Numbered from the stretch's first letter, positions 1,290 to 30,352 are shown. The stretch is DNA of 42,087 bases from a virus (IMGVR_UViG_2565956712_000007); one strand, 5' to 3'. The notes: generated by a model not told the origin, from the sequence alone. Numbers and translations are program-made.

Positions 1290-1772
1290 CTATCTTGTCA
1301 GGGTGTCATACTGTTTTTCGCAGACTCTTCCGGCTTCGGCTGCCCGGTCAGCATACTCTGCCAGTTGTCTGTTTCTCTCGAGAGATTTGCTGAGCACGTC
1401 GGCAAGCAAAACTCCGGTGTCTGCGGCTGACGTCCCAGCGCCGACAATGGCGTTATACTGCCTGAGCTGCTCACGGATGGCAAAGAGTTGTTGCTGCAAC
1501 CTGCCAGCGCGAGCGGCAGCATCAAGAGCATCATTGCGCGCCTGGTCGATTCTCTGCTGCGCTTCACGTTCATTGGTCACTTTCTCCTGTTCGTAGTACT
1601 GACGAACTTTGTCTTCTTCGTCTTTGCGGTCTTCTTCCGCCTGCGCATACCCGGCATCGTACTGGCGACTGCCGTGTATATTCCAGGCAACCACTCCGAC
1701 GATGAACAGAGCAGCAAGCATCACCACGATAATCAGTTGTTTCCAATATGCTTTTACGAATGCCCAGATCAT
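1290..1772 (-). CDS. Rz-like i-spanin
   Basis: N-terminal TM segment then charged coiled coil; ATGA overlap with upstream endolysin; contains embedded lipoprotein ORF. Confidence 0.7.
1298..1573 (-). CDS. Rz1-like o-spanin lipoprotein, embedded in Rz in another frame (true start probably an internal Met)
   Basis: LPLALAGC lipobox, Pro-containing short ORF wholly inside 1290..1772. Confidence 0.55.
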   Translation of the reverse strand: MNVKRSRESTRRAMMLLMLPLALAGCSNNSLPSVSSSGSITPLSALGRQPQTPEFCLPTCSANLSRETDNWQSMLTGQPKPEESAKNSMTP

Positions 1773-2398
1773 ATAGCCAGCACCTTACTGGCAGTGACGT
1801 ACCGCGCGCGCCGGTCGTCGATGCCGTTCCGGCCACCATTGATAATCAGAGTTACACGTGCAATATCACCGGTATACTTCATGCATCCTTTGCTGGCAAA
1901 GAACCACGCCGCGCTACGAGCCGCGTATTCGTCCTGCGCCAGCAGTTCAGGATTCTCCAGCAGGTCAACTTTCAGACCGTTTCCGCAGTCACGATAGTTA
2001 TTCAAACCGGTAATCTGGATAAGCCCGCGCCCACGGTAATTCCAGCCATCACCAGGGGCATTGTTCCCCATGCGTTTGCTGTACACCAGATTTGCGATCG
2101 CGCGCTGGCGCTCGAGTGGCAATGGTGGTTCACCAGCACGGCGACCAAGTGCATTAGCCTGCCCCTGAGTGAGACGCCCAGCCCGAACGAAGTTAGCCAA
2201 TCCGGTTACGCTGTAGTTGAAATTTTCCTGCAACCGGGTGAAGCCTCCAGACTCATGCCCGACCTGAGCAATAAACATTGCCTGATCTTCTGGTTTGCTG
2301 ATACCAAACTCTTTCATCGCAGAAGTTATATGCGAGAACCAGCGAGCGGCCAGTTCCTCGCTGATACCAGCAGCTCGCTGGAATTGTTTAATCTCCAT
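1769..2398 (-). CDS. Endolysin, glycoside hydrolase family 19 (chitinase-like)
   Basis: Motifs QVGHESGGF and [12 protein letters not shown] typical of GH19 catalytic core; sits in lysis cassette. Confidence 0.85.
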
Positions 2399-2696
2399 GT
2401 TTAGACCTCGTTATTTTGAAAATCTGAACTACGTTACCGCGCGTTTTAATGACTGCAGCAAGCATGACAGCGTTGATAATGACCTCAGATAAATCCACAA
2501 CCATTGGCGTGCGTAACCAGATTGCATAAGCGACACGAACTGGAATGCTGGCCGCAGCAACAATCAGGAAATAAGCAAGCCACCCACCCCATCGCCTGTG
2601 TTGAGAACCGTTTCTCCGAAATGTGGCAACTCGAACTGCTATACCGGCGCAAATAACCGCATTGGTGGTAAGCAAAAAAAGCTCATGAGTTACCAT
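2388..2696 (-). CDS. Holin-like small membrane protein
   Basis: About 100 aa, hydrophobic segments, immediately upstream of endolysin with overlap. Confidence 0.5.
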
Positions 2697-3096
2697 CGTC
2701 TTTTCTCCCCGGAATTAACTCGCGTGGATTATCGGAACGGTGATAGAGCCAGATCCCAATTCGCACAGCGACGATTGCTGACACAAATGCACCGGCAGAG
2801 AAAACAATCCCTTTCTCGAAAGAATCCTGTGTGATTGTAGGGATCAGGCTGGCTATGCCGATAAGAATTGATGCTGCTGGTTTGTAGAATAGAAGTCCGC
2901 AGAGAAAGCTAAGCATCGACAAGAGCACGCGACGACGAATGGGATACTCTACCGCAGAGGTAACAAAAATCACCGCCCCAGCCAAAGACCCCAAAGCAAC
3001 CTCAGGAGGAACTCCTGCTATCACTGCCGCCAAAGAACTCATGCTAAGCCACTGATTTAAAGTTTCACTGGTTAGTTGAGCTGACATGTTTTCCAC
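2683..3096 (-). CDS. Holin / antiholin-like multi-TM membrane protein
   Basis: Several hydrophobic helices; first gene of lysis cassette; AT-rich promoter region upstream. Confidence 0.5.
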   Translation of the reverse strand: MENMSAQLTSETLNQWLSMSSLAAVIAGVPPEVALGSLAGAVIFVTSAVEYPIRRRVLLSMLSFLCGLLFYKPAASILIGIASLIPTITQDSFEKGIVFSAGAFVSAIVAVRIGIWLYHRSDNPRELIPGRKDDGNS

Positions 3097-3456
3097 CGTT
3101 TATATGCATAACTACCTCCTGAACAGTAAAGCATTACGCATGATAAACCATTTATGGTTTTTTGTTACCCGATATTATCAATCCAATTCGCGATGGTCAA
3201 AACATATCCACAGCGGTAAGTTTGAGTGTTTTCATTTCCAAAACTTTATACAAAAATATATGCAGTCTGTTATTTTTACGCACAATAAAAACACGATACC
3301 AGCTATTTCGCCATAAATACAATTTCCTTTAATGCTGCCAACAGAGCCTGCAAAACATATAACAGAACACATAAATAACAGGCATAATATAGATTTAATA
3401 ATCTAAGTGCATATAAATATCATTTAAGAAGTTAAGAGCATTATTATAATAACAAT

Positions 3457-3480
3457 AACCCCGCTGTTTTATTCGGGGTT
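3457..3480 (-). terminator. Hairpin terminator just 3' of tailspike
   Basis: Stem AACCCCG / CGGGGTT, T/A-rich flanks, 14 nt after the tailspike stop. Confidence 0.55.
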
Positions 3481-3493
3481 ATTGCATTTATTA

Positions 3494-6469
3494 TTACATT
3501 GACATTAATATAAACATGGCTAATTCATCATAGCGAATTCCGTATCGTCCTCCTGCTTTTTTTACAAGAATCATATTTCCTGTTTTATATTGAGAATAAA
3601 TTTTCTCACCTGTATCAGGATCTGTGCTCTCTTCAGTTATCACCTCTTCATCCCATACGTCAGGCCATTCATCGTAACACCAAAAAGCATATTGCTCAGG
3701 ATTTAAACCATGCTTTCTAAGAATATCCCCTACGGTTTGAGCGCCAACGCCAAAATGATACCTGGACGACTCAATTCCTTTGTGATTAATTGAGTCATTA
3801 AATTTAAATTTATAGATGACTGACTTTATTTCAATAGCGGCATCACGCTCTGCATTAAGAATATCATATCTTGTTTTAAGAGTTTCATCTGATGTATTGA
3901 TTGACCCGGTTCCTGCATAGATAACAGAGCATCTGTTTGATGGCTGTCCAATAGCTTTAACATTATCATCAACAGGAGCTATTTTATTAGCATCTGCCAA
4001 CCACCAGTCTGTTCCATCAGCGTGACCGACTCTTACTCTTATCCCACTTCTAATATTTAAACTTCCGGTATTACTCTGTAAATTACAATCTCCTGACGTT
4101 GGTCCAAGCAGTACAGTTTTACCAACACCACATACTACTCTGGCATTTCCTTTTTGTGATACGAGTCTTGACTCACCTCCCGACTGCTCAGGAAGAGATT
4201 TATGGTCTATAAATGCATCGCGGGGGTTAAATACACCGTCTCCAGAATTATATCTTCCTCCTGTATAGTTGTTAAATACAGGACCCCAGTCAACGCCATT
4301 GCCTTCAGAGCACCCGACCATTCTAAGCACTCGTGTATTCCCTGCTGCATATGGTAATGAGCTTGTTGATTGCCGGGAAGCTATCATACGTGCTCCATAA
4401 CCAATAGCATTACCACCATTTATAGTTACATATGCTTGCTGGCTTTCGAAATATGTACTGTAAAAGTTCATATTTCCACAGTCATGCAGATGAATAAGAA
4501 CATCATCCCATCCCTGAATGGTTCCTGCATGTACCTGTACACCGCGAACTGGTTCCCCTGAAACCTCCATACACTCTGATGGCCGGCTGAATGGCTGAGA
4601 CAGGTATTGCGATGTGGCAAGCAGATGTGTGTGGTGATACAGGCTGGTAATGTAGCAATCGAAAAATTGCGTTCCCGCCATACCAAAGTTATCTATGTCA
4701 TTTCGCCGTATAGTAGAACCTACTGTTGCCTCAGAAGCGTTAGACACTCCAGTAAATACTAACTTATCACCGGATACGGATAATCCTGAATAAGTGAAAT
4801 TCCTGCCTCCAGATCTTAAAACCCCGGACGTTTCGAAGGTGTGGCTTGCTGACCATGGGATTTCGATGGTGCTGGACGTTACCGCTGTAATTCGGAATAC
4901 ATCATGGGCGCGGATCGAAACCCCCTTGAATCCCTGGAATCTACAGTGATAATAGTTTTCATCCTCGCCCTGAGCAGCCAGCGTGCCAGATACAGGAATG
5001 TTCGTTTTTAAAAGTGCCGTCTTGCGCCAGTATCCAACCACCTGCAAATTGCGGTATTCATTGCCAAAAGACGCACGTGACCAAATACCTACATCCCACT
5101 CATCGCCAAGACCGGTATTTGCAATGTCTTTATAACCATCCAGACCATTGAAATATGGAACAATACGAAAGTTCTCAAGGCGAACACATCCTGTCTCTGG
5201 CATCAATATTGCGGCAGAGAATGGTTTAAGCGTGGCTCTTGTAGCCCCATTAGCATCACCGTTAGTAAAATCCAATAAATCATATGATGACGCAGGTGCC
5301 GTTGTTGTATACGGGTCTTCGGAAGATGGATTAGAAACCACACCACCACTAACATCCATATTAGAAACACAATCTACAGTATATTTTTTATTTCCTACCC
5401 CGTACATCAGGAATGTGGTCCCTGTGGTAATATCAGGAGCAAATGTTGCAGTATATCCAGAGACCCATTTGCCCACACCAAGACCAATTATCCCACCACC
5501 AGAAACAGGTGTTAACGTATCCGTTATTACATACGCATTATCAGTACCATAAATAACCTTTCCTGTGTTAAGGGCAGCTTGCCACGCGGCCCAGTCTATT
5601 GACTGAGATAATGAGTCAACAAAAGGATATAAGGATTTTGCTTCAGAAATTGAAGAAAACCTCTCAGATAATGGATGATATTTCCCATCCCCAATTGCTC
5701 CGAATTGTTTTACATTTAAGAAAAGAGCATTGTTTTCATGCTGAGTTATAGTTACAGCCCCGGCAAATGGCTGCCTTACACCAATTAATGCATCACCTTT
5801 TCCTTCTCCTGCGCTAGATAATTGCAGAAGAACATCTGCGGCACTGCCAGAAGGCACAGGTACACCTATAGGTTTACCATTGACGATACCAATGACAGTT
5901 TCTTCCAGTAAATGAACTGGAGGAAGTGGTTCAATAAAATTATCTGGAACCCGTAATGTCCTGTTAATATTCACATTAACAATATTATCAACATAATTCT
6001 TTGTAGCTGCATCTTGAGGCTTGGAAGGATCGCGCAAATTGCGGATGTAATTATTCAAAGCATCGTAATAGTTTGCCACAAATGATGGTTTGCGCAGCGC
6101 CAGGCTAAACCAACTGCGGACTTGCTGTATCAGCATCGTCAGCTTATCTAACGCGTCTTCATGCACCTCAGCGAAAAACTTTCCCTGATTTCGCAGATCA
6201 GTTTCCTGCGTAACCGGTAGCTCTCGTGATATAGAAATCTGATAACCGTTAGCTAACGCCTTCGACAGAATTACATTACCGCCATTATATCCACCAGCCC
6301 CTGTGACAGTGTAATCAGTATCAAGAGCCAGCACAGCGATATTTTCGTCAAGGTCAACCACCTGTACTGCCAGATCAGATTCCTTGAAAACCCTAAAGGT
6401 ATACGGAAATGATGTCGTAACGCCGTTACCTGTGTATTCGTTGTGGTCAACTTCGGTTGAGACCGTCAT
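3494..6469 (-). CDS. Tailspike / tail fibre (991 aa): T7-type N-terminal attachment domain, central depolymerase-like body, C-terminal chaperone-like domain
   Basis: N-terminus GNGVTTSFPYTF...LDTDYTV pattern; C-terminal ...YKFKFND...GIRYDELAMFIL; GGAGA RBS. Confidence 0.8.
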   Translation of the reverse strand: MTVSTEVDHNEYTGNGVTTSFPYTFRVFKESDLAVQVVDLDENIAVLALDTDYTVTGAGGYNGGNVILSKALANGYQISISRELPVTQETDLRNQGKFFAEVHEDALDKLTMLIQQVRSWFSLALRKPSFVANYYDALNNYIRNLRDPSKPQDAATKNYVDNIVNVNINRTLRVPDNFIEPLPPVHLLEETVIGIVNGKPIGVPVPSGSAADVLLQLSSAGEGKGDALIGVRQPFAGAVTITQHENNALFLNVKQFGAIGDGKYHPLSERFSSISEAKSLYPFVDSLSQSIDWAAWQAALNTGKVIYGTDNAYVITDTLTPVSGGGIIGLGVGKWVSGYTATFAPDITTGTTFLMYGVGNKKYTVDCVSNMDVSGGVVSNPSSEDPYTTTAPASSYDLLDFTNGDANGATRATLKPFSAAILMPETGCVRLENFRIVPYFNGLDGYKDIANTGLGDEWDVGIWSRASFGNEYRNLQVVGYWRKTALLKTNIPVSGTLAAQGEDENYYHCRFQGFKGVSIRAHDVFRITAVTSSTIEIPWSASHTFETSGVLRSGGRNFTYSGLSVSGDKLVFTGVSNASEATVGSTIRRNDIDNFGMAGTQFFDCYITSLYHHTHLLATSQYLSQPFSRPSECMEVSGEPVRGVQVHAGTIQGWDDVLIHLHDCGNMNFYSTYFESQQAYVTINGGNAIGYGARMIASRQSTSSLPYAAGNTRVLRMVGCSEGNGVDWGPVFNNYTGGRYNSGDGVFNPRDAFIDHKSLPEQSGGESRLVSQKGNARVVCGVGKTVLLGPTSGDCNLQSNTGSLNIRSGIRVRVGHADGTDWWLADANKIAPVDDNVKAIGQPSNRCSVIYAGTGSINTSDETLKTRYDILNAERDAAIEIKSVIYKFKFNDSINHKGIESSRYHFGVGAQTVGDILRKHGLNPEQYAFWCYDEWPDVWDEEVITEESTDPDTGEKIYSQYKTGNMILVKKAGGRYGIRYDELAMFILMSM

Positions 6470-6572: not shown

Positions 6573-6589
6573 ATTACCTTTCAGGTAAT
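6573..6589. promoter_or_regulatory. Operator-like site ATTACC-TTTCA-GGTAAT
   Basis: Perfect 6-bp inverted half-sites, 5-bp spacer; member of a 14-copy family. Confidence 0.6.
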
Positions 6590-6627
6590 TTGCAAAACGT
6601 GCTGGATAGCAAACAAATTATTTGATA

Positions 6628-6643
6628 CTGTATAAATATACAG
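6628..6643. promoter_or_regulatory. LexA (SOS) box CTGTATAAATATACAG
   Basis: CTGT-N8-ACAG with AT-rich centre, flanked tA...tt, 22 nt upstream of the ATG at 6665. Confidence 0.65.
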
Positions 6644-6664
6644 TTATTGCATGGAGAAGATAAG

Positions 6665-6922
6665 ATGCAGCAGTATCACTATCCACTGGAAGACGGATTT
6701 ACCGAAAGGATTCACACGCCGGGAGGCGTCAGGTCACTGGTGGAGGGATCGCACTTGATGAAATTACTCCGGGATCTCGATAAGGATGGATTTAATGTCG
6801 ATGGCCCACTTGCCGAACTGACTGCACTGATTAACTACGTCACCAGCTCACAGATGTCTATGCGGGATCTGCAAACACATCTCGACTATTGTGCCGAACA
6901 ATTACGAAAACAAACCCGGTAA
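6665..6922 (+). CDS. Small SOS-controlled protein (85 aa) carrying the antirepressor C-terminal module; candidate antirepressor
   Basis: GGAG RBS; C-terminal half aligns with the last 77 aa of both Ant proteins (LM.LL..L..DG..V.G..AELT...Y......RD.QTH..Y). Confidence 0.6.
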   Translation: MQQYHYPLEDGFTERIHTPGGVRSLVEGSHLMKLLRDLDKDGFNVDGPLAELTALINYVTSSQMSMRDLQTHLDYCAEQLRKQTR

Positions 6923-6929
6923 ATTTAAA

Positions 6930-6945
6930 GGCCGCAAGAGCGGCC
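6930..6945. terminator. Hairpin terminator GGCCGC-AAGA-GCGGCC between convergent genes
   Basis: Perfect 6-bp GC stem, 4-nt loop, T-rich flanks. Confidence 0.6.
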
Positions 6946-7673
6946 TATCGTTTCGCTTTGTGCTCATCCCAGCACGTTTTGCACCATGCCATTAAGCCGT
7001 CCGCATTTTGATTATTAGGGTAAAAGCTGGTTCGTTTTCTGCGGACATTACAAATTGGGCACCACTTCATATGGCGTGTATTCTTTGGGCCATCGAGACA
7101 CCTTGCACACCATTTAGTCAATCCATCTGGATTTTTTGACGATTTCCTGAATTTTTCATATGGAAGGTTTATTCTGCATCGCAAGCACTGCTTGCTACCA
7201 CTTGAAACTCTGTTAGCTGATTCTTCTTTTGGCGGCGATACAGAAGGTATTCTTGCTGGCTCTGATATTGCCTGAGGTGCTTTTTTAGATGACTGAGACG
7301 ATATGTCATCACCAGGGAATCTTCCATGATATGCCGGACGCGTTGACACTCCAGGTGGAATCTCAGCTGTAAACGGCTTTGGCTGAATCAGTTGCCTCTC
7401 TTTTGCTAACTCCTGCTGTTTATAATATGTCTGGATTACCGCACTATCATAAGCAGGAGGTGCGGAAATATTAGGCGCATTACCTCCAGTTTTTTGAAAC
7501 TGAGTAGAGGTGTGTTCTATCACCTGTGTACGATTAATCGTTATCTCCCCATCTTCGGTCTTTATCGTTTTGTTATGATTAACGACCGTACGATCAGAGA
7601 TCTTAGTCTTGTTCTGGTTGATAACGTAAATAATCACCGCAACCACACCAACAACTATCCAGAAAACTTCCAT
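6945..7673 (-). CDS. Membrane-anchored protein with duplicated Cys-rich (zinc-finger-like) C-terminal repeats; moron
   Basis: N-terminal TM helix; two C-x2-C ... W-C-x2-C repeats; operator-like site in its upstream region. Confidence 0.55.
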   Translation of the reverse strand: MEVFWIVVGVVAVIIYVINQNKTKISDRTVVNHNKTIKTEDGEITINRTQVIEHTSTQFQKTGGNAPNISAPPAYDSAVIQTYYKQQELAKERQLIQPKPFTAEIPPGVSTRPAYHGRFPGDDISSQSSKKAPQAISEPARIPSVSPPKEESANRVSSGSKQCLRCRINLPYEKFRKSSKNPDGLTKWCARCLDGPKNTRHMKWCPICNVRRKRTSFYPNNQNADGLMAWCKTCWDEHKAKR

Positions 7674-7692
7674 TGCTTTTCCTCACAATAAC

Positions 7693-7709
7693 ATTACCTT
7701 AAAGGTAAT
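7693..7709. promoter_or_regulatory. Operator-like site ATTACC-TTAAA-GGTAAT
   Basis: Perfect inverted half-sites. Confidence 0.6.
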
Positions 7710-7785
7710 ATCTTGCTTTCAGGTGATCAAGCGTTAAACGCAATCAACCAAATACGGTTGATTTTAATGTTTCTTCGCGCTTATC

Positions 7786-7802
7786 ATTACCTTTACGGTA
7801 AA
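7786..7802. promoter_or_regulatory. Operator-like site ATTACC-TTTAC-GGTAAA
   Basis: One mismatch to consensus; next to TTTACA -35-like hexamer. Confidence 0.5.
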
Positions 7803-7894
7803 TTTACATCGCACTCCTCTTGTGCCATAGTAATCGGGCACTGGCAAAATCCAGTGCCGGGATTGGCGTCCCGGATTACTACAGAGGCACATAT

Positions 7895-7915
7895 GCCGCA
7901 TAAGCGGTTTTTTTT
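7895..7915 (+). terminator. Intrinsic terminator in the ant leader
   Basis: Short GC stem GCCGC-ATAA-GCGG followed by T8. Confidence 0.5.
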
Positions 7916-8068
7916 ATGTGTAAAGCGCACCTATTCTATGGTGGGCTGTGTGGGGGCACCGAAAGGTGCGCCGGGTCCTTTGTAGCCGGTTACGCCAACC
8001 CTGCACAGTTCACCACCAACCGATTGGCGTCGGTAGTGGTGATTAACCTAACTACAAAGGTGATCACT

Positions 8069-8755
8069 ATGACTGCTAACGTAACCCCATCTGTTTTTCA
8101 TTTTGAATCAGAAGCAACCATTCGAGCCATTGTTATTGATGGAAATCCTTGGTTTGTTGCCAAAGACGTTATTAAAGCTCTTCAACTGACAAACCCCACT
8201 ATGTCAATAAAATCTCTTGATGATGATGAAAGGGCTAAATTTAACTTAGGCCGTCAAGGCGAAACCAATATTATCAACGAGTCAGGCCTCTACACACTGA
8301 TCCTCCGCTGCCGCGATGCGGTGACACCAGGCACTATCCCATACCGCTTTCGTAAATGGGTTACAGGTGAGGTTCTTCCTCAGATCCGCCGCACCGGAAG
8401 TTACATTAAAAACTCGCTCCCGCAAGAAGAACGCATAAAGATGGTTGCCGACCAGGTAGCCAACGCCACGGCGTCAGCAGTAATGCAGGCAATGAAGGTA
8501 GAGAACAAAACCTACAGCGCCCCACTGAAGCCCGGCTACCGCAGCCTGATTCATTCGCCGTCTGGTGTTCTCGGCCTGACAGAGAACTCACTGCTGATGA
8601 ATCTGCTGAACCAGTTACAGGACGACGGGCACGACGTATCGGGCGCGGCGGCGGAGCTGACCACCATGTTCTGCTACATCGTCGGTGTGAGCAAATGCCT
8701 GCGTGATATCCAGACCCACGCGGAGTACATCAACGACAAGGCAGGGTTCTTCTGA
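8069..8755 (+). CDS. Antirepressor, Bro-N-type N-terminal domain (Ant1)
   Basis: N-terminus FHFESEATIRAIVIDGNPWFVAKDV; RBS AAGGTGA; C-terminal 77 aa near-identical to Ant2. Track start 7916 is likely too far upstream. Confidence 0.8.
   Translation: MTANVTPSVFHFESEATIRAIVIDGNPWFVAKDVIKALQLTNPTMSIKSLDDDERAKFNLGRQGETNIINESGLYTLILRCRDAVTPGTIPYRFRKWVTGEVLPQIRRTGSYIKNSLPQEERIKMVADQVANATASAVMQAMKVENKTYSAPLKPGYRSLIHSPSGVLGLTENSLLMNLLNQLQDDGHDVSGAAAELTTMFCYIVGVSKCLRDIQTHAEYINDKAGFF
8522..8755 (+). repeat. Inverted repeat arm A (234 bp, about 96% identical to arm B)
   Basis: Encodes C-terminal 77 aa of Ant1; about 10 mismatches to the reverse complement of 9618..9851. Confidence 0.85.
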
Positions 8756-8825
8756 CGGCGGCGGCGCAGGGACGTGCCTTTAAATAATTCTGTACAGATT
8801 GCAGACTGGGGGTGAATAGCGTACT

Positions 8826-8842
8826 ATTACCTTAAAGGTAAA
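8826..8842. promoter_or_regulatory. Operator-like site ATTACC-TTAAA-GGTAAA
   Basis: One mismatch; directly upstream of an AAGGAGG RBS. Confidence 0.55.
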
Positions 8843-8853
8843 GGAGGCGCGAT

Positions 8854-9021
8854 ATGACAGCGTTGAAAAATCGTACTCAGCACAATGAACAAGCCAAGCA
8901 ATGCTGGGATGTCATTGGAAAAGTTATGCTTGGCCGCGCAAGCAAAGAGCGCGACAAGGATATGGTTTACCAGACAGGAACATCTTTCAGCGACTTCAAG
9001 GCGGCATTTCGCTCCAAATAG
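8854..9021 (+). CDS. Small protein (55 aa), hypothetical; first gene of cassette
   Basis: AAGGAGG RBS 6 nt before ATG; not in ORF track (under 60 aa); opposite-strand track ORF 8827..9027 has no RBS. Confidence 0.5.
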   Translation: MTALKNRTQHNEQAKQCWDVIGKVMLGRASKERDKDMVYQTGTSFSDFKAAFRSK

Positions 9022-22576: not shown

Positions 22577-23014
22577 TTAACCAGTTACTTTTGAGCGGAT
22601 CGGGTACGGCGTATTGGCATCAACATCCAGACTGATACCCGCAGTGAATTTGCCGGCCGTTAGTGGGCCAGTTGCGACGGAGTAGTTAACACGCAGATAT
22701 CGCTGAACACCGGCTGGCACCTTTGCAGAAACAACTCGCTTACCTGCTGTCAGGGTGGCCTTTGCCAACGCACCACTATCATAAATAGTGGTCCAAGAGC
22801 TGTTATTCTCACTCGTCTGCAACTGGATGTTTACAGTTGCCTCACCACTTGCCGTGGCGGCTTCGTTAACCAGCACCCAAAACTCAAGCGGGTAACCCAC
22901 ACCGATATCGCGACGGTTTCCATCAATTGGACCGAGATCGATTACGTCAGTAGAAGCCGCGGTATTCGTAACCGCCTGAGCTTCGGAGAACATCAACAGT
23001 TTGTCGGTGATCAT
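22577..23014 (-). CDS. Head-associated protein, hypothetical (145 aa)
   Basis: Immediately downstream of capsid gene, GGAGA RBS. Confidence 0.55.
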   Translation of the reverse strand: MITDKLLMFSEAQAVTNTAASTDVIDLGPIDGNRRDIGVGYPLEFWVLVNEAATASGEATVNIQLQTSENNSSWTTIYDSGALAKATLTAGKRVVSAKVPAGVQRYLRVNYSVATGPLTAGKFTAGISLDVDANTPYPIRSKVTG

Positions 23015-23065
23015 CTTCTTTCTCCATTAGTGGGTCTGTTACGACCCACAGGTTAATAACAGGCG

Positions 23066-24058
23066 TTACACCACGCGGGCTTCTGTTTCCAGAAGCGCAT
23101 CAGTTTCACGGATTGGTACACCACGGAATGACGTCCACCACTCGCCTTCAGTCTCTTTTACGCTAATCGCCAGAGATGTTTTCTCCAGAGACTGCAGATC
23201 AAGAGCCTGGCCTACAGTGCGGTTCATGTAGAACACCGGGCGACCCATGCCACGGTTTGGAATGCGATGCAGTGCTTTAACCATCAACTTCGCAATATTT
23301 GCGGCAGAGGAAGGTTCTGAAAGATTGCTGACATCGATGTTTGCAATGCGAACAACATAACGCCAGTCACGCAGAGCAAGTCCGTTGTCCCATTTGTAAT
23401 GGGTACGGTAGCCTTCGTACTTGCCGCCATTAGCATCTTCCAGTGTCACCTGGCCTTTATCTTCCATCTGAATGCCAGCCTTCTGCCCTTTCGGGAAGAT
23501 GCCATGCACGGTGTTTTCGCCCCACACCACTAACCAGATTGAGGTGTTATCTGTGCCCGTGCCACCAGCATCAATGATGTTCTGAGCATTACCTGCAGAC
23601 AGGCTGGAATAGCGGGAGGACAGTCCCATAAACTGCTGAGGGTTAACGCTGGAATCACCATAAAACAGCGTCTGCGCCATCTGCTGATTCATCGCTTCAA
23701 TAAATGCGCGGTCTTCAGACAGGCGGAATTCGGCGGTATTGCCGTTCAGATCAGCCAGTGACTTATCGACTTCAGCATAGGTTTCCAGCATGCCAACGGA
23801 ATCGGTTACCTGCACTGTGGTTGATTTGCTTGGCTGTACGCCATAGTTCAGCAAACGCCAGGTAGCTGAAGGTAAACCAGAACGAATGGTGGTTCGGTGT
23901 CCGGTAGGAAGGTTCCCTTCGACAAAAGGCATATCCTGAAGGATCGGGTTAGTTTGACCGAGAAGCTCGATAATCTTATCGACTTTCCCGTTTGGATCGA
24001 CGCGCTTACCCCAGTCAGCCAGCGTTAGCGCAGTTAAGCCTTTAACAGCCATTGTCAT
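23066..24058 (-). CDS. Major capsid protein (330 aa)
   Basis: Position after the scaffold-like gene; size; followed by an intercistronic hairpin. Confidence 0.75.
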   Translation of the reverse strand: MTMAVKGLTALTLADWGKRVDPNGKVDKIIELLGQTNPILQDMPFVEGNLPTGHRTTIRSGLPSATWRLLNYGVQPSKSTTVQVTDSVGMLETYAEVDKSLADLNGNTAEFRLSEDRAFIEAMNQQMAQTLFYGDSSVNPQQFMGLSSRYSSLSAGNAQNIIDAGGTGTDNTSIWLVVWGENTVHGIFPKGQKAGIQMEDKGQVTLEDANGGKYEGYRTHYKWDNGLALRDWRYVVRIANIDVSNLSEPSSAANIAKLMVKALHRIPNRGMGRPVFYMNRTVGQALDLQSLEKTSLAISVKETEGEWWTSFRGVPIRETDALLETEARVV

Positions 24059-24066
24059 TTCCTCTC

Positions 24067-24768
24067 TTATTTGCCATAGAGCACTTCGGCCGCACTACGC
24101 TGGCCTTCATTACCACCGGTGACCATGCCATCTTCAGACATCGCCTTTCCGATTTTCACGAACGTTTTGACCAGGTCAGGGTGATTACCCAGTCCGGTGG
24201 TGTTCAGATATTCTTTGAGTTCAGGTGTCCCGAACTGGTCAAGCGCACGCTGTGCGGCGCTAAGGTTAGAAATCAACTTGTCGCCACCGATTTCTTTGTC
24301 AGCTTTTACATCCGCAGCCCACTGCTCGGTTGTTTTCTGCCAGGCTTCTGCCTGGCGCTGCTGAACACCTGCCAGAATCTTCGGATAAGCATCAACCAGC
24401 TTTTGCGCTTGCTCGTTGGTCAGGTTTAGTTCTCGCGCCACCGGCTCGAATTCCTTCAACGCTTCTGTATCCAGCTCTACGCCTTCGGCAGCCTGAAACT
24501 CGTACTTCTCAGGCGCACCCTCTGGTTTATCGCCGCCCTTTTTTTCATCCTGCTTATCGTTTTCAGGCTTTTTGTCATCAGCAGGTTTATCGCCATCAGA
24601 AACAGGTTGTGGCTTATCACCTTCCTGTTGTGATGGATCACCAACTGGAGCAGGGTTATCATCTGCATGCGCTGACGGTTCTGACGCAGCCGGAGCTGCC
24701 CCACCATCGACTTGTTGCTCATTGCAAAGACGGCGATACAGCAAACGCTCAAATAAACTCATGATCAC
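24067..24768 (-). CDS. Scaffolding protein (acidic, low complexity)
   Basis: Acidic, Pro/Asp/Lys-rich N-terminus with helical C-terminus; between portal and capsid. Confidence 0.65.
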   Translation of the reverse strand: MIMSLFERLLYRRLCNEQQVDGGAAPAASEPSAHADDNPAPVGDPSQQEGDKPQPVSDGDKPADDKKPENDKQDEKKGGDKPEGAPEKYEFQAAEGVELDTEALKEFEPVARELNLTNEQAQKLVDAYPKILAGVQQRQAEAWQKTTEQWAADVKADKEIGGDKLISNLSAAQRALDQFGTPELKEYLNTTGLGNHPDLVKTFVKIGKAMSEDGMVTGGNEGQRSAAEVLYGK

Positions 24769-25061
24769 TCCTGTTCACTGGCCTCTTTGGCCATCTTCAA
24801 ATACTGTTCAGGGCAATGCGCCATAACGCGCTGAAACAGTTCCAGCGCCAGATTGCGTTGCCCCTCATTAAATGCCATTGCCATAGCATCCATCGGAGAG
24901 ATAGCGGAAAACACCCGGCCTTTCTCCAGCACCGACCAGACAACGCGACGCCCCTGTTCACTGCTCATGACAAAGCGAATGTCATCAATTTCACGCTGTG
25001 CCATGTCACGTTGCTTACGGGCGTTTTCTTCTTTCAGTTGATCGTCTTCGTAATCTGTCAT
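24765..25061 (-). CDS. Hypothetical protein (98 aa) between portal and scaffold
   Basis: Overlapping start/stop coupling with neighbours. Confidence 0.5.
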   Translation of the reverse strand: MTDYEDDQLKEENARKQRDMAQREIDDIRFVMSSEQGRRVVWSVLEKGRVFSAISPMDAMAMAFNEGQRNLALELFQRVMAHCPEQYLKMAKEASEQE

Positions 25062-26737
25062 TGTGATTGCCCACCCTGACCACTAACTGCATTCGCCATA
25101 GCTGACAACACACTCGGATCCGAAGTTTTAGCTTCGCTTAGCGTCTTGGCCCCCTGTGCCGCCGCCATCCCCATCGCCATCATTTGTTGCTGCTGTTGTT
25201 GCTGTGCCCGTTGCTGGCGAGCCTGCTCAACCTGTTCCTGCGGAACAATGACGGTTGGAGACACTCCGGACATATCAGCGAATGCATCGATCGCCTGATC
25301 AACGTTGAGTTTGTCGAGAGCTTCTGGTTTCGCTTGCGCAAGTTGACCAATGAAGTTAACCGTGGACGCCAGACTGGACAGGCCGATAGACTTCTGCGCC
25401 TGAGCCATGACGGAAATGTATTCGACCTTCAGGGGCATGCCTTCCATCGCGTCAGGCGGTGGCGGCAGCATGTTTTTGCGCACCATCATCGAGAAAGCGC
25501 GGTCAATGAGAGGATTAAGACATTCGTCGTTCAGACGCTCCAGAACCGGCCCCAACATCAGAAGTTTTTCTTCTTTCATTTCGATCACCGCTTCAACAGG
25601 CATCGAGCGGGTATTGATGTTCTGCAACATCATGAACAGATCGACAAAGTAGGCGCTGTTAATGATTTGACGAGTGTCCTGAATGTCTGCCACCAAATCT
25701 GCTGTACTGGGGTTAACCAGATAAGCAGGCCTGAAGCCATCCTGACCAGTAATCTGATCGATATACGTGATGTCGCCAGGAAGAAGGGAGGCGCGCTGAT
25801 TCTTGAGGGAATTCGGAGCAACCATCGGCGGATTGGTGGCTTTATCAATCAACTGCGACTTGCGCTTCTGGAGAAGCTGCAATGCCTTAACAGGTCCAAG
25901 CGCCAGCATACCCGGGCATGATGATCCATAAACATCTTCGCCGTTAACTTCCCAGCGCGGAGCCATAATTGGAAACTCATCGAATCCGGACTCACGCAAC
26001 AACTTGTCGTTATCTCCACCAACCTCGTAATAAACCGATTTGAATGGCTTGTTCTTGCTATCCAGCTTCGATGTATCGCGGTCAATGTTCGGGTAAACCG
26101 AATGCATCACTTCGATCCACTTCTCGTAGGTGCCGCTTTCCCACATGCTTTTTACGGATTCGCTGACGTTATTTAGCCCGAACTCCTGAACAAGCTGACG
26201 AACAGTCATAGAGAACTTGCGAAAACAGGTGTCAACACTGCCACGAGGTGAGTTAGCCAGGTAGTAACTGCCTATCGGGAATGGCATTGTGCGAATGATG
26301 TCCTCGTCATCCTCCAGCACTGCCATTGCACCAGTGCTGTATGTGCCGAGGCTTCCGTATAACTGCGGAAGAGACTGGTAGAGATTCGACTTATTGAACA
26401 TATCGTTCATGCGGTTCTGAACTGCCTCAAGCCACAACTTAACAGGGCCATAATCCATCATTTCAGGATCTGGCGTAGCCAGGCGAAACCACGGACGCGC
26501 GGGGCTTGTGATGCCTGACATCATGCCGCTGGCGAGAGTGCGCGCCGCCATAGTCCCGGTCGAATCAATAATGCGTGTATTGCGCCGATCGTTACGGTTG
26601 GCCTCAGAAGTCAGAAAGCGGGAACCACGCGGGTTGATGTAATCACTCAACTCGCGCCAGTGCGGCTCGAACGACTGACGCTCGCTTTCAAGTTGTGCGA
26701 ACTGTTTGTTCAATCGCTCTTTAGTTGTTTCCGCCAT
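25058..26737 (-). CDS. Portal (head-tail connector), T7-like type
   Basis: 559 aa; Gln/Ala/Met-rich C-terminal tail (QQQQQQQMMAMGMAAAQG) like podovirus connectors. Confidence 0.8.
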   Translation of the reverse strand: MAETTKERLNKQFAQLESERQSFEPHWRELSDYINPRGSRFLTSEANRNDRRNTRIIDSTGTMAARTLASGMMSGITSPARPWFRLATPDPEMMDYGPVKLWLEAVQNRMNDMFNKSNLYQSLPQLYGSLGTYSTGAMAVLEDDEDIIRTMPFPIGSYYLANSPRGSVDTCFRKFSMTVRQLVQEFGLNNVSESVKSMWESGTYEKWIEVMHSVYPNIDRDTSKLDSKNKPFKSVYYEVGGDNDKLLRESGFDEFPIMAPRWEVNGEDVYGSSCPGMLALGPVKALQLLQKRKSQLIDKATNPPMVAPNSLKNQRASLLPGDITYIDQITGQDGFRPAYLVNPSTADLVADIQDTRQIINSAYFVDLFMMLQNINTRSMPVEAVIEMKEEKLLMLGPVLERLNDECLNPLIDRAFSMMVRKNMLPPPPDAMEGMPLKVEYISVMAQAQKSIGLSSLASTVNFIGQLAQAKPEALDKLNVDQAIDAFADMSGVSPTVIVPQEQVEQARQQRAQQQQQQQMMAMGMAAAQGAKTLSEAKTSDPSVLSAMANAVSGQGGQSQ

Positions 26738-26751
26738 TTCAATGACTCCGG

Positions 26752-26958
26752 TTACTGACCAAGCAGCGTTTTACCGCTGGTATTAGCGGTTGATGTGTCG
26801 CCCTGAGAACCGGTAAGCAGCGTAGAACTACGACCAGCAGCAGCGCGACGGCGACGTGTTTCTTCGTCGCGGGCATCAACAACGGCAGCATCCTGCTCCT
26901 GTGGTGCTGCCTGAACTTCTGGTGTTGCAGGCACTGATGGTGAGCTACCCATGCACAT
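26752..26958 (-). CDS. Small hypothetical protein upstream of portal (68 aa)
   Basis: GGAG RBS; low-complexity sequence; could be spurious. Confidence 0.35.
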   Translation of the reverse strand: MCMGSSPSVPATPEVQAAPQEQDAAVVDARDEETRRRRAAAGRSSTLLTGSQGDTSTANTSGKTLLGQ

Positions 26959-27047
26959 ATCAATGACTCCGTACGCAATTAAATTATTACCAATTTAACC
27001 ACATATGATTTATTTATCGTAGATAGTTGACATTTAACGCGCGAATT

Positions 27048-27064
27048 ATTACCTTTCAGGTAAC
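27048..27064. promoter_or_regulatory. Operator-like site ATTACC-TTTCA-GGTAAC
   Basis: Same half-sites and same spacer as the 6573 site. Confidence 0.55.
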
Positions 27065-27385
27065 TAAAGAGTTCATTCCGGTTACTAACCTGACTGGCTT
27101 GTCGTTAAATTGAACAGGTGGAGTGAGCTTTTATTTTGAGCAGTACGGCGTATGGCACATGCGACGATAGCGGTCTGGATACGTTTAAGGGGCACCCTCC
27201 CTTGCTCGGGCAAACGAACCAGGTAGCCGGAATGTGCAAGTCGAGCGGTTTTATTCCGCGCACGGGGATTCACCATCCCGGCGATTCGGTGTGACGCCTC
27301 GGAAGAGACGAGGGTACAACGATGAGAGCATTTATGGAGCCGCGACAAAGTGTGGTGCCTTAACAGGCTAAGTGCTCTCAGCGTT

Positions 27386-27462
27386 GTGGCATTAGCTCAG
27401 TTGGACAGAGCAACCGCCTTCTAAGCGGTTGGTCGCAGGTTCGAATCCTGCATGCCACGCCA
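27386..27462 (+). tRNA. tRNA-Arg (anticodon UCU)
   Basis: Hand-folded cloverleaf: 7-bp acceptor GTGGCAT/ATGCCAC, D-stem GCTC/GAGC, anticodon stem ACCGC/GCGGT with loop CTTCTAA, T-arm GCAGG-TTCGAAT-CCTGC, discriminator G, encoded CCA. Confidence 0.85.
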
Positions 27463-27505
27463 GAATCACGCCTAAGGACCGTGATGCCAGAAGTTCCAGG
27501 GGCTT

Positions 27506-27547
27506 GGCGGTGATGGTTTCCCTTGAAGGACTATCACCGCCCTTTTT
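27506..27547 (+). terminator. Hairpin + T5 downstream of the tRNA
   Basis: 9-bp stem GGCGGTGAT / ATCACCGCC with large loop, then CTTTTT. Confidence 0.5.
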
Positions 27548-27625
27548 ACAGCAGGACGCCATTGCGATGACTTCATGCTGTAAACCAGTACAGCCACGGA
27601 AGGCATAACTCATTGCTTCCAGTTC

Positions 27626-27650
27626 GCCCGGTTCGCCGGGCATTTTTTTA
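27626..27650 (+). terminator. Intrinsic terminator GCCCGG-TTCG-CCGGGC + T7
   Basis: Perfect stem with tetraloop followed by ATTTTTTTA, 10 nt before the moron RBS. Confidence 0.7.
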
Positions 27651-27660
27651 AGGTGAGATT

Positions 27661-28083
27661 ATGAAGACAATTGATATGTTGGCTAAGTATCTAAATGAAT
27701 GGCCATTAAAATATTCTCGTATCGTTCAGGCTGAAGACTGCGTTTTTTATGGCGTTTTTGCTGGTAATGAAATGCATTACGAAGTAATTCAGAGTGAGGG
27801 ACTGACCGGGTTAACTCTTAGCGAAGACCATGGTACTAGCGTTACGTTCCATGACTGGATAACAGCACAACGTTCTGAAATGGAAAAAGGCGATGTGTTT
27901 GATATTTCTCGCGCTGTATACGCCAAAGAAAAAAGTGATGATGATTACATGCGCGAAAACTTATACAACATGAAGTTACAATGCCTGGCTGAAGTGCTTA
28001 GTAAAAGATCTTTACTTGATGTGGTTGGTGCTGAGCAGGACGCCAAGGCAATCAACGCCGCATTCGATAAAATAACCTTCTAA
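27661..28083 (+). CDS. Moron protein (140 aa), function unknown
   Basis: RBS AAGGTGAG; antisense to late operon; own terminator. Confidence 0.6.
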   Translation: MKTIDMLAKYLNEWPLKYSRIVQAEDCVFYGVFAGNEMHYEVIQSEGLTGLTLSEDHGTSVTFHDWITAQRSEMEKGDVFDISRAVYAKEKSDDDYMRENLYNMKLQCLAEVLSKRSLLDVVGAEQDAKAINAAFDKITF

Positions 28084-28087
28084 CGCA

Positions 28088-28099
28088 GTGACATGTCAC
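28088..28099. repeat. 12-bp perfect palindrome GTGACATGTCAC (copy 2)
   Basis: Exact 12-mer, 4 nt after the moron stop, 4 nt before the terminator hairpin. Confidence 0.9.
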
Positions 28100-28103
28100 A
28101 AAC

Positions 28104-28130
28104 AGCCAGCCGATGAGCTGGCTTTGTTTT
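28104..28130 (+). terminator. Intrinsic terminator AGCCAGC-CGATGA-GCTGGCT + TTGTTTT
   Basis: 7-bp perfect stem and T-rich tail. Confidence 0.75.
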
Positions 28131-28173
28131 ATCCTCATCAGAGGATATCAACGACATTATCCCCACCAGCGGA

Positions 28174-29649
28174 TTAAGCATAGGGATCGTAATCTGTGAT
28201 GGCCTTGCCTTGCTGGTTCTGCTGACCGGGAATTCGCAGACGCTTCGACACAGGGAACGCAAACGTCAGCAGTAGCGCATCGCCTTTACCAGGAGAACGC
28301 CCAAGCCGCTCCTTGATATCTTCCTTCTGTTCGATAATGATTTTACCGTCCACGCGAACTTTGTACTCTGCCGCCGACAGGTCGTCCGCTGTTTCCTGGT
28401 CATCCAGCATGCCGCCCAGCCTCAGCCATGTCTTGCATGAATTGAACATCTCCCCACGCTTGTTGAGCATCTGCGGGTCAGTAGACGCGCCACCGAACGG
28501 AACAAGTTGCCATGTACGACCCCATCCGTCACCGATTGACTTCAAACCGGTTCCGTAACCGAAGTCGATGAACACCGCGTCAGCCTGATACTGGTCTTCA
28601 AAGTCAGCGATACGCTTTGCCATAATCAGATCGTCAGTGGTCTTGTTGCCAGTCCACAGCACCTTACTGTGCAGCCCCTGCCGCAGGTATATCACAGCGT
28701 CATCAACGCCTGAGTATGCCGGGTCAACGCCGATTATCACCGGAGCATGTGCAACCTGCGCAGCGGTGACCACCCGTTTCATTGCCTCGTCAGTAAGTCC
28801 GGTAGGGATAAACTGCAATTCAGATGCATCCGGGAATATGCCGCGCACACGGATTTTAACGAAGTCGCTGTCTTCCCCGTAGTCATCAACCCATTTCTGC
28901 AACTGCTGTTTGTTGGTGCCTTCCACCGTCCGGCTGTCAATCTGCGCAGTTTTCCAGCGGTGTTTATATTTGCGGAAACATTCGCGGAAACGTCCGGTAT
29001 TACGCGTCGGGTTTCCGAACGCCACCCAGATAATCTCAGTGTCTTCGTCCGTTAGCGCACCCTCGGCAACTTCCCACACCAGATCCGCAATGTTCGACGC
29101 TTCATCGAATACCACGATGATGCGTTTGCGCTCGTTGTGTAGTCCGGCGAATGCCTCAGTGTTGTGCTCAGACCAGGGTATTGCGTCAGCTCGCCACCGC
29201 TTGTCGTGTCCAGGATCATTGCTGTACATCGCGGTAGCGGTACAGGTAAACCAGTCTTTCGTGATAGCAAGGTTCGACCACTTGATAATTTCCGGCCAGG
29301 TCTTCGTTCGTAGCTGGTTGTCGGTGTTGGCGGTCACCACAACCTTACAATCCTCGCAAGTGGACATGCCCCAGTTGATCAGCATTGAGATGAATGCGGA
29401 TTTACCAATACCGTGACCCGAAGCGCGTGCCAGCATAAGCGGCTGATAGCGCGTCTCTGGATTCTGCAGGTGATCACGTATCTCTCGGAACGCATCAGCC
29501 TGCCACTGACGTGGACCGGTGGCATGTGCCAGTTCAGTCCCATCTTCCCCCCACGGGAACGCATAGAGGGCATAGCCAAGCGGATCGTGAGTGAACCCTG
29601 CAATATCCTCGATTAACTGCTCTTCAGGAGATAACGCTGTATCTGTCAC
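28174..29649 (-). CDS. Terminase large subunit
   Basis: Walker A-like SGHGIGKS; 491 aa; overlaps small-subunit gene by 4 nt. Confidence 0.85.
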   Translation of the reverse strand: MTDTALSPEEQLIEDIAGFTHDPLGYALYAFPWGEDGTELAHATGPRQWQADAFREIRDHLQNPETRYQPLMLARASGHGIGKSAFISMLINWGMSTCEDCKVVVTANTDNQLRTKTWPEIIKWSNLAITKDWFTCTATAMYSNDPGHDKRWRADAIPWSEHNTEAFAGLHNERKRIIVVFDEASNIADLVWEVAEGALTDEDTEIIWVAFGNPTRNTGRFRECFRKYKHRWKTAQIDSRTVEGTNKQQLQKWVDDYGEDSDFVKIRVRGIFPDASELQFIPTGLTDEAMKRVVTAAQVAHAPVIIGVDPAYSGVDDAVIYLRQGLHSKVLWTGNKTTDDLIMAKRIADFEDQYQADAVFIDFGYGTGLKSIGDGWGRTWQLVPFGGASTDPQMLNKRGEMFNSCKTWLRLGGMLDDQETADDLSAAEYKVRVDGKIIIEQKEDIKERLGRSPGKGDALLLTFAFPVSKRLRIPGQQNQQGKAITDYDPYA

Positions 29650-30242
29650 TGATTACCATCCTGACGTTCTTTGAGTCGCTTCCTGGCTGCTGCTATGCGA
29701 TCAGCAATTGTCACATTCACATTAACATCCAGACGTTCTTTGAATGCGTTGACATCAACATGCTTACCAATCAGCTCAAGGTTCTTCACCTTGTCAGGCC
29801 ATTTAATTTTTTTGAGGATTGTCTCTATTGAATCCTCGTTCATGTTCATGATGGTCGATGACAGATCAAAGCCACTAAGCGTAGTGCGCCAGATTTTCGG
29901 CCACTCACGGATTGGTTTAAGGCTCCCATCGTCGTTGAGGATGTCGATCACGTCCATCTGGTCGATCTCCACCAGGCGCATGAGAACGTAATCAGCACTG
30001 ACACGCATTCGTTTGTTGCGCTCCTCCATCAACTCGGCAATCCGTTTCTGAATGCGTTCATCGCGCATCATGACACTGGCTTTAACTGCCGCTGTATTTG
30101 GGGAGAATCCTGCGTTAATCGCAGCCTGAGTCTGGTTTTCAGGCGTTTTGATGTATGACTGGCAATAAGCCTCCTGCATTGCTGTGAGCGGCTTAAATTG
30201 CGTTGATTTGCGTTTATAGGTTTTAGGTTCAGCAGGCATCAT
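29646..30242 (-). CDS. Terminase small subunit (start probably the ATG-ATG at 30242/30239, not the track TTG at 30320)
   Basis: Terminase_2-like region LTAMQEAYCQSYI...AAINAGFS; upstream 78 nt hold an operator-like site and a terminator hairpin. Confidence 0.7.
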   Translation of the reverse strand: MMPAEPKTYKRKSTQFKPLTAMQEAYCQSYIKTPENQTQAAINAGFSPNTAAVKASVMMRDERIQKRIAELMEERNKRMRVSADYVLMRLVEIDQMDVIDILNDDGSLKPIREWPKIWRTTLSGFDLSSTIMNMNEDSIETILKKIKWPDKVKNLELIGKHVDVNAFKERLDVNVNVTIADRIAAARKRLKERQDGNQ

Positions 30243-30258
30243 AACCACCGTGGTAATT

Positions 30259-30275
30259 GTTACCGTTGTGGTAAT
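30259..30275. promoter_or_regulatory. Operator-like site GTTACC-GTTGT-GGTAAT in the terminase leader
   Basis: Inverted half-sites, 5-bp spacer. Confidence 0.5.
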
Positions 30276-30280
30276 AGTAC

Positions 30281-30311
30281 CATGCAAAATAAAGCCGCCA
30301 TAGTTGGCGGC
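30281..30311 (-). terminator. Hairpin terminator upstream of the late operon (tR'-like)
   Basis: GCCGCC-N6-GGCGGC followed on the minus strand by UUUAUUUUG. Confidence 0.55.
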
Positions 30312-30352
30312 AGTATTCAAAATCCATCAAATTCATCATGCATAATCTACTC

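Follow-up and report, generated by a model that had tools for sequence, protein, structure and literature searches.

The 42,087-nucleotide stretch of viral DNA analysed here (IMGVR_UViG_2565956712_000007, hereafter the window) very probably holds, at positions 1163-42087, one intact-looking temperate podovirus prophage of the epsilon15 type (genus Uetakevirus and close relatives), which sits at the 3' end of guaA and adjoins yfgI. In an earlier note made from the sequence alone, the part from 1290 to 30320 had been described as a mosaic, in which a T7-like virion module is placed under lambdoid and P22-like regulation and the lysis genes are displaced to the far end. The idea of a T7-like tail on a temperate backbone is broadly right, but this "mosaic" is the known standard genome plan that is conserved in the group of epsilon15, phiV10 and TL-2011b, and what had looked like a special combination with displaced lysis genes is the invariant layout of these three phages. 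The architecture has long been known for epsilon15-like phages, and the prophage is nearly identical to published sequences.

Identity, borders and relatives of the prophage

Comparison with temperate podoviruses, which the earlier note had proposed as a check, carries this identification: over most of its length the prophage is 97-98% identical to phiV10 and TL-2011b and collinear with both. In megablast searches, the segment 12000-30320 matched Escherichia phage TL-2011b at 98.1% identity across 94% of the query, the phages phiV10, HEMP4, PAS61 and ZX5 at ~98% across 63-66%, and Salmonella phage epsilon15 at ~78%, and the early region (30321-42087) matched phiV10 at 97.8% across 82%. A segment map gave 96.9% identity to TL-2011b for 9506-27649, which spans the genes for Ant, Arc, Mnt, the four internal virion proteins, the nozzle, the adaptor, the head proteins and the portal, and 97-98% identity to phiV10 for 17969-30984 and 33462-42087. 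The gene order is the same in TL-2011b, epsilon15, phiV10 and the window. phiV10 and epsilon15 share with the window the order from terS to Rz/Rz1, followed by attP and int, the recombination genes, rep/cro and the replication genes, and besides this the att core, an ant gene preceded by a LexA box and the operator motif. TL-2011b (NC_019445), a prophage of enterohaemorrhagic Escherichia coli O103:H25, has the same terminase and lysis genes and the same integration flank, and differs in parts of the early region. Since the T7-like and temperate arrangement is conserved throughout epsilon15, phiV10 and TL-2011b, it is old and characteristic of the group; the T7-related tail and ejection genes and the lysis cassette at the end of the genome are family traits and do not mark a fresh recombination event. 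At a finer scale, the prophage is a recombinant of lineages that have already been sequenced, with a late region of the TL-2011b type (ejection proteins and immI island included), an early region of the phiV10 type and a receptor-binding part of the tailspike that also occurs in prophage YDC107_2. Its portal-to-nozzle block is found at a coverage of at least 80% in 505 of 5426 complete E. coli genomes (~9%), and the main value of the analysis is the correct annotation of a common E. coli prophage type.

The border beside the lysis genes is marked by the att core ATTGAGTGGGAATGATT at 1163-1179 (minus strand), an exact match with a chance expectation of 0.03; at the guaA 3' end, phiV10, epsilon15 and ZX5 have this sequence as their attP/attB core (PMC9782041). 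Phage similarity of the phiV10 type begins at 1163. Positions 1-1162 (plus strand) are host chromosome outside the prophage and carry yfgH and yfgI, as annotated in the matching genomes: a query of 1-1300, mostly host flank, matched 5422 of the 5426 complete E. coli genomes, and the open reading frame (ORF) 1-516 has glycine-zipper lipoprotein domains. Because of the att core at 1163-1179 and the host genes yfgH and yfgI before it, the prophage is taken to span from 1163 to past the tyrosine integrase gene (40837-42087, minus strand). The GenBank record of TL-2011b also runs into the host flank, and RefSeq calls the yfgH homologue there a 'DNA methyltransferase'.

Some observations weigh against this identification. 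The window contains one att copy only; the second copy and the guaA junction fall outside it, so that intactness is not proven. A rough sum of aligned fraction times identity gives ~60% for the prophage versus phiV10 and ~78% versus TL-2011b, which is not a formal intergenomic score. In addition, the NCBI taxonomy lists TL-2011b as 'unclassified Caudoviricetes', and the ejection proteins B, C and D (12014-18323) are unlike those of epsilon15 and phiV10 and belong to the TL-2011b type. In the literature, TL-2011b is treated as a Uetakevirus (PMC11522302), and the Uetakevirus relatives are podoviruses (PMC9782041). Because everything between the att core (1163) and the integrase is collinear with the isolated phages phiV10 and TL-2011b, whose genomes are complete, it is very improbable that the window is an artefact of two adjacent prophage remnants, one with podovirus structural genes and one with lambdoid regulatory genes, even though the G+C content varies from 0.38 to 0.52 along the window and opposite-strand islands are present at 6600-12000. 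The 'regulatory' part and the 'structural' part have an operator motif in common, neither a second att pair nor a further integrase was seen within the window, and the relative ZX5 lysogenises and is released (PMC9782041). All of this favours a single epsilon15-like prophage.

Head, tail and ejection proteins

Every gene that the earlier note had named in this part was found, all on the minus strand, which also holds for the late genes below unless stated otherwise: portal, capsid, tube A- and B-like proteins, four internal virion proteins (one with a lytic transglycosylase, SLT, domain) and tailspike are present in podovirus order. T7 genes 8-17 have the same order, namely portal, scaffold-position gene, capsid, adaptor, nozzle, four internal proteins and fibre or spike; the Pfam families of portal and gp14 and the folds of gp11 and of the gp17 N-terminus are shared with T7. 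The label of a T7-like virion module fits the portal (by Pfam), the adaptor (by fold), the gp14-like protein, the gp13-16 synteny and the tailspike anchor (by fold), but neither the capsid shell, which is of the BPP-1/epsilon15 type, nor the terminase, as judged from the literature: the terminase and capsid of epsilon15 have been grouped with siphoviruses (PMC4819975).

The portal (25058-26737) belongs to the T7 gp8 family (PF12236, E 1.4e-187). For the tail adaptor (tube A-like, 21252-21860), a sequence profile search of the PDB did not reach T7, whereas a fold search did. Its AlphaFold (AF2) model, with a predicted local distance difference test score (pLDDT) of 83, gave 25 matches at E <=0.001, all of them tail-complex chains of short-tailed phages; it matched T7 gp11 (7BOX) with the T7 gp11 fold at a template modelling (TM) score of ~0.6 and E 7e-6, and also KP32 tail tubular protein A. 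The tail nozzle (tube B-like, T7 gp12 position, 18787-21252) matched 8CK1, 'Tail Nozzle', at E 5e-218, an entry for which a literature search found no paper. Its recognisable relatives in tblastn are podoviruses, several of them with the annotation tail tubular protein B, and include Carin1 ("tail nozzle", 44%), Pseudomonas phages Ab31 and AF, Pelagibacter podophages ("tail tube B"), BPP-1-type phages, BcepC6B and Liberibacter SC1. The link from nozzle to T7 rests on 8CK1 and on PMC4819975, with no direct match to T7.

Internal virion protein A (T7 gp13 position, 18323-18787, phrog_308) resembles T7 Gp13 weakly (E 0.088). Protein B (17745-18323) is a member of the T7 gp14 family (PF24072 T7_gp14, E 1.5e-8, above the cutoff), and RefSeq lists it in E. 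coli genomes as 'virion core protein, T7 gp14 family'. Protein C (T7 gp15 position, 15028-17745, 905 amino acids (aa)) carries the SLT domain at residues 260-342, and its likeness to gp15 is positional only. Protein D (T7 gp16 position, 12014-15028, 1004 aa; phrog_342, E 3e-209) shows weak similarity to gp16-like proteins of Autographiviridae phages; its nearest other relatives are found in Klebsiella phage Kp4865-1 (36%) and Vibrio podophages (~32%), and a sequence search of the PDB gave no match. For the epsilon15 group, tubular tail proteins A and B and internal virion proteins A, B and D have been described as homologous to T7 and protein C as corresponding by position (PMC4819975), and the gp14/15/16 synteny is shown in PMC8954989. 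The 2025 cryo-electron microscopy paper on epsilon15 makes no comparison to T7. By analogy with T7 and epsilon15, the core proteins at the gp13/14/15/16 positions would be ejected to span the cell envelope, where the SLT domain would cut peptidoglycan.

Inside a virion module that is otherwise 97-98% identical to phiV10, a divergent cassette of proteins B, C and D takes the place of the one in phiV10 and epsilon15. In comparison to phiV10, protein B has 63% identity to gp17, the likeness of protein C to gp18 is limited to the first 250 aa (44%), and that of protein D to gp20 is limited to a C-terminal stretch (22%). After the gp14-like protein, phiV10 and epsilon15 have three large internal proteins (837, 600 and 824 aa in phiV10), in contrast to two in the window (905 and 1004 aa), and similarity between them is partial. 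The cassette variant of the window is present at a coverage of at least 80% in 45 complete E. coli genomes, in one of them at 100% identity.

As evidence against its proposal, the earlier note had named a clustering of the structural proteins with siphovirus or myovirus families. Instead, the nozzle relatives are podoviruses, the fold matches of adaptor and tailspike anchor come from short-tailed phages, and no siphovirus or myovirus tail family was found. The gp8-type portal, gp11-type adaptor, gp12-type nozzle, gp14-16 core and gp17-type anchor follow one another as in the T7 family; the RNA polymerase and the strictly lytic plan of that family are absent. Unlike T7, the prophage is temperate, with integrase and repressor, and lacks a gene for a single-subunit phage RNA polymerase, as no unassigned ORF is large enough and every ORF >400 aa is otherwise assigned. 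It further differs from T7 by a capsid of the BPP-1/epsilon15 type with cement and staple, an SLT domain on the gp15-position protein instead of gp16, a tailspike with an enzyme-like body instead of a fibre, and terminase genes at the front of the late region. Had a lambdoid or P22-like temperate backbone recently taken up the virion module of a lytic T7-family (Autographiviridae) phage, the resulting unusual chimera would explain the profile and fold matches to T7 proteins as well as two likenesses discussed below, namely the 90-98% DNA identity of the accessory genes at 30700-33300 to Shiga toxin (Stx)-converting and P22-like phages and the resemblance of the Ant N-terminus to Stx phages and P22. 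We consider such a chimera hardly credible, since T7 itself is remote (12-18% identity in fold alignments and no PDB sequence match to T7), the whole arrangement is kept in epsilon15, phiV10 and TL-2011b, no ORF is able to encode the phage RNA polymerase, and the core immunity and replication genes match phiV10 and not lambdoid phages at the DNA level. The virion genes are better understood as those of an ordinary epsilon15-like phage.

The head genes fit this assignment to the epsilon15 group, as a GP7-type capsid protein, a gp10-like staple and a Bbp16-like cement protein are all present. The major capsid protein (BPP-1/epsilon15 GP7 type, 23066-24058, PF20911) matched 3J4U at E 1e-128 and 3J40 at E 2e-85, and is nearer to that of Bordetella phage BPP-1 (3J4U) than to epsilon15 gp7 (3J40). 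It is followed by the cement protein (22577-23014, family match), a small protein to which no function is assigned (22231-22575) and the staple (21857-22186, family match), and preceded by a Bbp19-like protein (24765-25061, family match) and the scaffold-position protein (24067-24768). The latter is termed 'protease' or 'endoprotease' in PHROGs and GenBank, but it matched no protease family, and a sequence search of the PDB gave no match. Its N-terminal half is acidic and of low complexity and its C-terminal half is helical by eye; because it occupies the position of T7 gp9, it looks more like a scaffolding protein than a protease. The small terminase subunit TerS (29646-30320, PF03592) probably starts at the ATG at 30239, which gives 197 aa as in the TL-2011b annotation. 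The longest TerS ORF begins at a TTG at 30320, and the extra 5' stretch holds two operator-like sites and a terminator-like hairpin. The large subunit TerL (28174-29649) was assigned by phrog_2 and had no match in a sequence search of the PDB. Between the terminase and portal genes, a tRNA-Arg (TCT) gene is located on the plus strand (27386-27462) and is annotated in related phages, too; it overlaps the 3' end of an 83-aa ORF (27392-27643, minus strand) that is a coding sequence in TL-2011b and phiV10. Judging from the studied relatives, the capsid would be of the T=7 class and carry the cement and staple proteins; the portal of the virion is of the T7 type, its adaptor resembles gp11 and its nozzle gp12.

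Tailspike and lysis cassette

A tail fibre and a separate tailspike had been expected from the earlier note, but both correspond to a single ORF (3494-6469). Its product is the tailspike and the sole receptor-binding protein, with a T7 gp17-type anchor (residues 1 to ~165), a beta-helix body and a C-terminal S74 chaperone domain. The N-terminus itself reaches 17 bits against PF03906, which is under the Pfam cutoff, and a sequence profile of the anchor did not reach T7 in the PDB, whereas the fold search did: the AF2 model of the N-terminal 170 aa, well folded at residues 5-87, matched the N-terminus of T7 gp17 (7BOZ) with probability 1.0 and E 1e-4, and also the anchors of Carin-1 and LME-1. 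Since anchor homologues of 63-66% identity carry PF03906 and the fold search matches gp17, the question of a T7-type anchor is settled, and the tailspikes would be attached to the virion via this gp17-like domain.

The anchor is kept in all Uetakeviruses (PMC11522302). In the window, the anchor-coding DNA (~5986-6469) aligns with all three relatives, whereas 3103-5985 does not. This receptor-binding part is absent from TL-2011b, whose tailspike has an unrelated one, and from phiV10, and is 99% identical to prophage YDC107_2. Modular exchange of the kind already documented for the group is exemplified by the receptor-binding part, which was exchanged behind a conserved anchor, and by the swapped ejection cassette. 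Two further ORFs were considered as a second fibre and rejected: 9618-10556 encodes a P22-type antirepressor Ant and 6945-7673 a zinc-finger accessory protein.

The lysis cassette is located after the tailspike gene and not before the terminase genes, as the earlier note had stated. It consists of two holin-like membrane proteins (Phage_holin_8 at 2683-3096 and Phage_holin_3_7 at 2388-2696), an endolysin of glycoside hydrolase family 19 (GH19; 1769-2398, PF00182, E 1.9e-9, above the Pfam cutoff), the i-spanin Rz (DUF2514, 1290-1772) and the embedded o-spanin Rz1 (ORF 1298-1573, lipobox LALAGC). The same arrangement of Rz with embedded Rz1 is annotated in epsilon15 and phiV10, and the order in epsilon15, phiV10 and TL-2011b is tailspike, (O-antigen modification genes), holin, endolysin, Rz/Rz1, attP and int. 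Only a comparison with lambda and P22 makes the lysis genes "displaced"; T7, too, has its holin gene 17.5 and spanin genes 18.5/18.7 behind the fibre gene. Lysis would be carried out by the holin(s), the GH19 endolysin and the Rz/Rz1 spanin, whose genes stand at the distal end of the late region beside attP. In contrast to its relatives, the window has no O-antigen modification gene between the tailspike gene and the lysis cassette. epsilon15 encodes a polymerase and an inhibitor, phiV10 an O-acetyltransferase, and TL-2011b an O-acetyltransferase between the tailspike and lysis genes; in the window, the ~400 base pairs at this place (3097-3493) contain neither such a gene nor any ORF >76 aa.

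Repressor-antirepressor control and the immI island

Regulation had been called lambda-like in the earlier note, which describes the map well but not the switch. The early map starts with the integrase, followed by an MT-A70 methylase and a PerC-like activator, RecT and an exonuclease, a repressor between operator clusters and a cro-like gene, and continues with a DnaT/helix-turn-helix (HTH) initiator and a lambda P-family protein (E 1.5e-56), ea/nin-type accessory genes, a small regulator and terS. The lambdoid order of int, recombination genes, left operator (OL)-repressor-right operator (OR)-cro and O-P is thus present. The immunity region (35959-37062, both strands), as defined by domains and the operator motif, comprises the cro-like gene (35959-36189, minus strand), operator-like sites at OR (36226, 36274), the gene for a 194-aa HTH repressor (36344-36928, plus strand), a terminator-like hairpin (36949-36968) and operator-like sites at OL (36986, 37048), which flank a promoter-like site (37020-37048). 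Unlike a lambda-type switch, the repressor has HTH domains only and no self-cleaving S24 peptidase domain, an Ant of the SPC32H type with a LexA box is present, and operator-like sites stand before late operons. No member of the N or Q families was detected in the ORFs where these would be expected, including the interval from the replication genes to terS, and NCBIfam added nothing for the regulators. A divergent regulator (113 aa, phrog_536) might act as a functional analogue of Q.

The control logic should be read as the repressor-antirepressor type of SPC32H and epsilon15. An 85-aa ORF (6665-6922, plus strand) shares 86.7% identity with the SPC32H 'ant: anti-repressor protein' (KC911856); in phiV10, TL-2011b and epsilon15, the annotation of this gene is no more than 'hypothetical protein'. 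A perfect predicted LexA box, CTGTATAAATATACAG, is located 22 nucleotides upstream (6628-6643, plus strand) and is kept in epsilon15, phiV10 and TL-2011b. Together with the repressor, which like SPC32H Rep is an HTH protein without a cleavage domain, all parts of an SPC32H-type switch are found. The SPC32H ant gene was reportedly described by Kim and Ryu in 2013 as being under LexA control. SPC32H Ant breaks up the Rep tetramer (PMC9638917), and a RefSeq note links the epsilon15 repressor to the SPC32H Rep structure 5D50. The repressor of the window is the phiV10 allele, which is ~42% identical to the epsilon15 allele (PMC9782041). Induction would proceed via the small Ant with its upstream LexA box, as in SPC32H, and would not involve self-cleavage of the repressor.

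The operator-like palindrome TTACC-N5-GGTAA, with up to one mismatch, occurs at 14 sites in comparison to 0.69 expected, a 20-fold over-representation, and corresponds to the predicted sites of 'repressor' binding that the epsilon15 record lists. Besides OR and OL, sites are found in the early region (33881, 33943), just upstream of the TerS ATG (30242 and 30260, spanning 30242-30274) after a terminator-like hairpin (30311-30294), upstream of the portal operon (27049), around a Bro-N gene (8827 as well as 7694 and 7787, the latter two upstream of it), between ant and the tailspike gene (6574-6588, the epsilon15 equivalent of which is annotated as 'repressor' binding) and, with one mismatch, inside a holin-like gene (2949). 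By their places in front of terS, the tailspike gene and the portal operon, the predicted operators suggest a direct repression of late units by the prophage repressor. We regard it as an evenly balanced question whether the repressor silences the late genes directly, without a lambda-style Q cascade. If true, this would be an experimental confirmation and no discovery, as the sites have already been predicted in the epsilon15 record. Lysogeny would be held by the two-HTH repressor, bound to the palindrome at both OR and OL and in front of the late units. Scans for promoters and terminators did not rise clearly over shuffled controls, which makes individual sites of these kinds weak hints.

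The immI island that the earlier note had called P22-like was borne out. It comprises a Mnt-like repressor with an Arc/Mnt ribbon-helix-helix N-terminus (10887-11348, plus strand, PF03869; 32% identity to P22 Mnt, E 4e-14), which diverges from arc-ant, an Arc-like ribbon-helix-helix repressor (10629-10832, minus strand; P22 Arc, E 6e-5) and a P22-type antirepressor Ant (9618-10556, minus strand; P22_AR_N, E 2.5e-45), which is 39.6% identical to P22 Ant over residues 1-212 (E 4e-30). The order in P22 is gene 16, sieA, mnt, arc, ant and gene 9, and the island of the window likewise has the gene of the last ejection protein on one side and the tailspike gene on the other, and follows a membrane-protein gene on the opposite strand. 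By sequence and by its identical placement, the Mnt-Arc-Ant island is homologous to immI of P22, with which it shares the divergent layout of mnt versus arc-ant. It differs from P22 in the length of Mnt (153 versus 83 aa), in the C-terminal 100 aa of Ant and in several accessory genes between ant and the tailspike gene. TL-2011b has the island, too, but epsilon15 and phiV10 lack it.

This homology at the P22 position, from the last ejection protein to the tailspike, and the Ead/Ea22-like accessory genes could also be taken to place the prophage among the P22-like phages (Lederbergvirus). Such a membership is extremely unlikely in view of the other genes: PF12236 (T7 type) was the sole family matched by the portal and PF20911 (epsilon15 GP7 type) the sole one matched by the capsid, adaptor and nozzle match tails of the Carin-1, LME-1 and T7 type, no lysis genes precede those of the terminase, an S24 domain is missing from the repressor, and the DNA identity is to Uetakevirus phages. 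In the epsilon15-like prophage, the Mnt/Arc/Ant island and a Bro-N domain protein (phiV10-type 'anti-repressor', 7916-8755, plus strand, PF02498) may supply extra antirepressor capacity. Three antirepressor-type genes occur together, namely the small LexA-boxed Ant, the Bro-N protein and the P22-type Ant under Mnt/Arc.

The P22-type Ant is chimeric. Its residues 1-212 are like Ant of P22 and Stx phages, and residues 212-312 are like the small Ant (epsilon15 gp19) and the C-terminus of antirepressors of Tyrion and of the phiV10 type. A promoter-like site (10860-10832) precedes the arc-like gene; sites in that stretch are no more numerous than chance would give. At 30700-33300, the ea/nin-type accessory genes (DUF551, Ead/Ea22, EaA/EaE-like) show 90-98% DNA identity to Stx-converting and P22-like phages, and this segment is the sole part of the early region with a recent lambdoid exchange. 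Between the small ant and the Bro-N gene, a 242-aa accessory protein has a zinc-finger C-terminus of the Lar/endonuclease VII-like kind (6945-7673, minus strand; phrog_6762, phrog_5558). The region 10000-12000 is of low G+C content (0.38) and contains the Mnt-like gene and a 203-aa single-pass membrane-anchored protein (11391-12002, plus strand, phrog_8033). Based on its position, which is that of sieA in P22, the latter may be a superinfection-exclusion gene.

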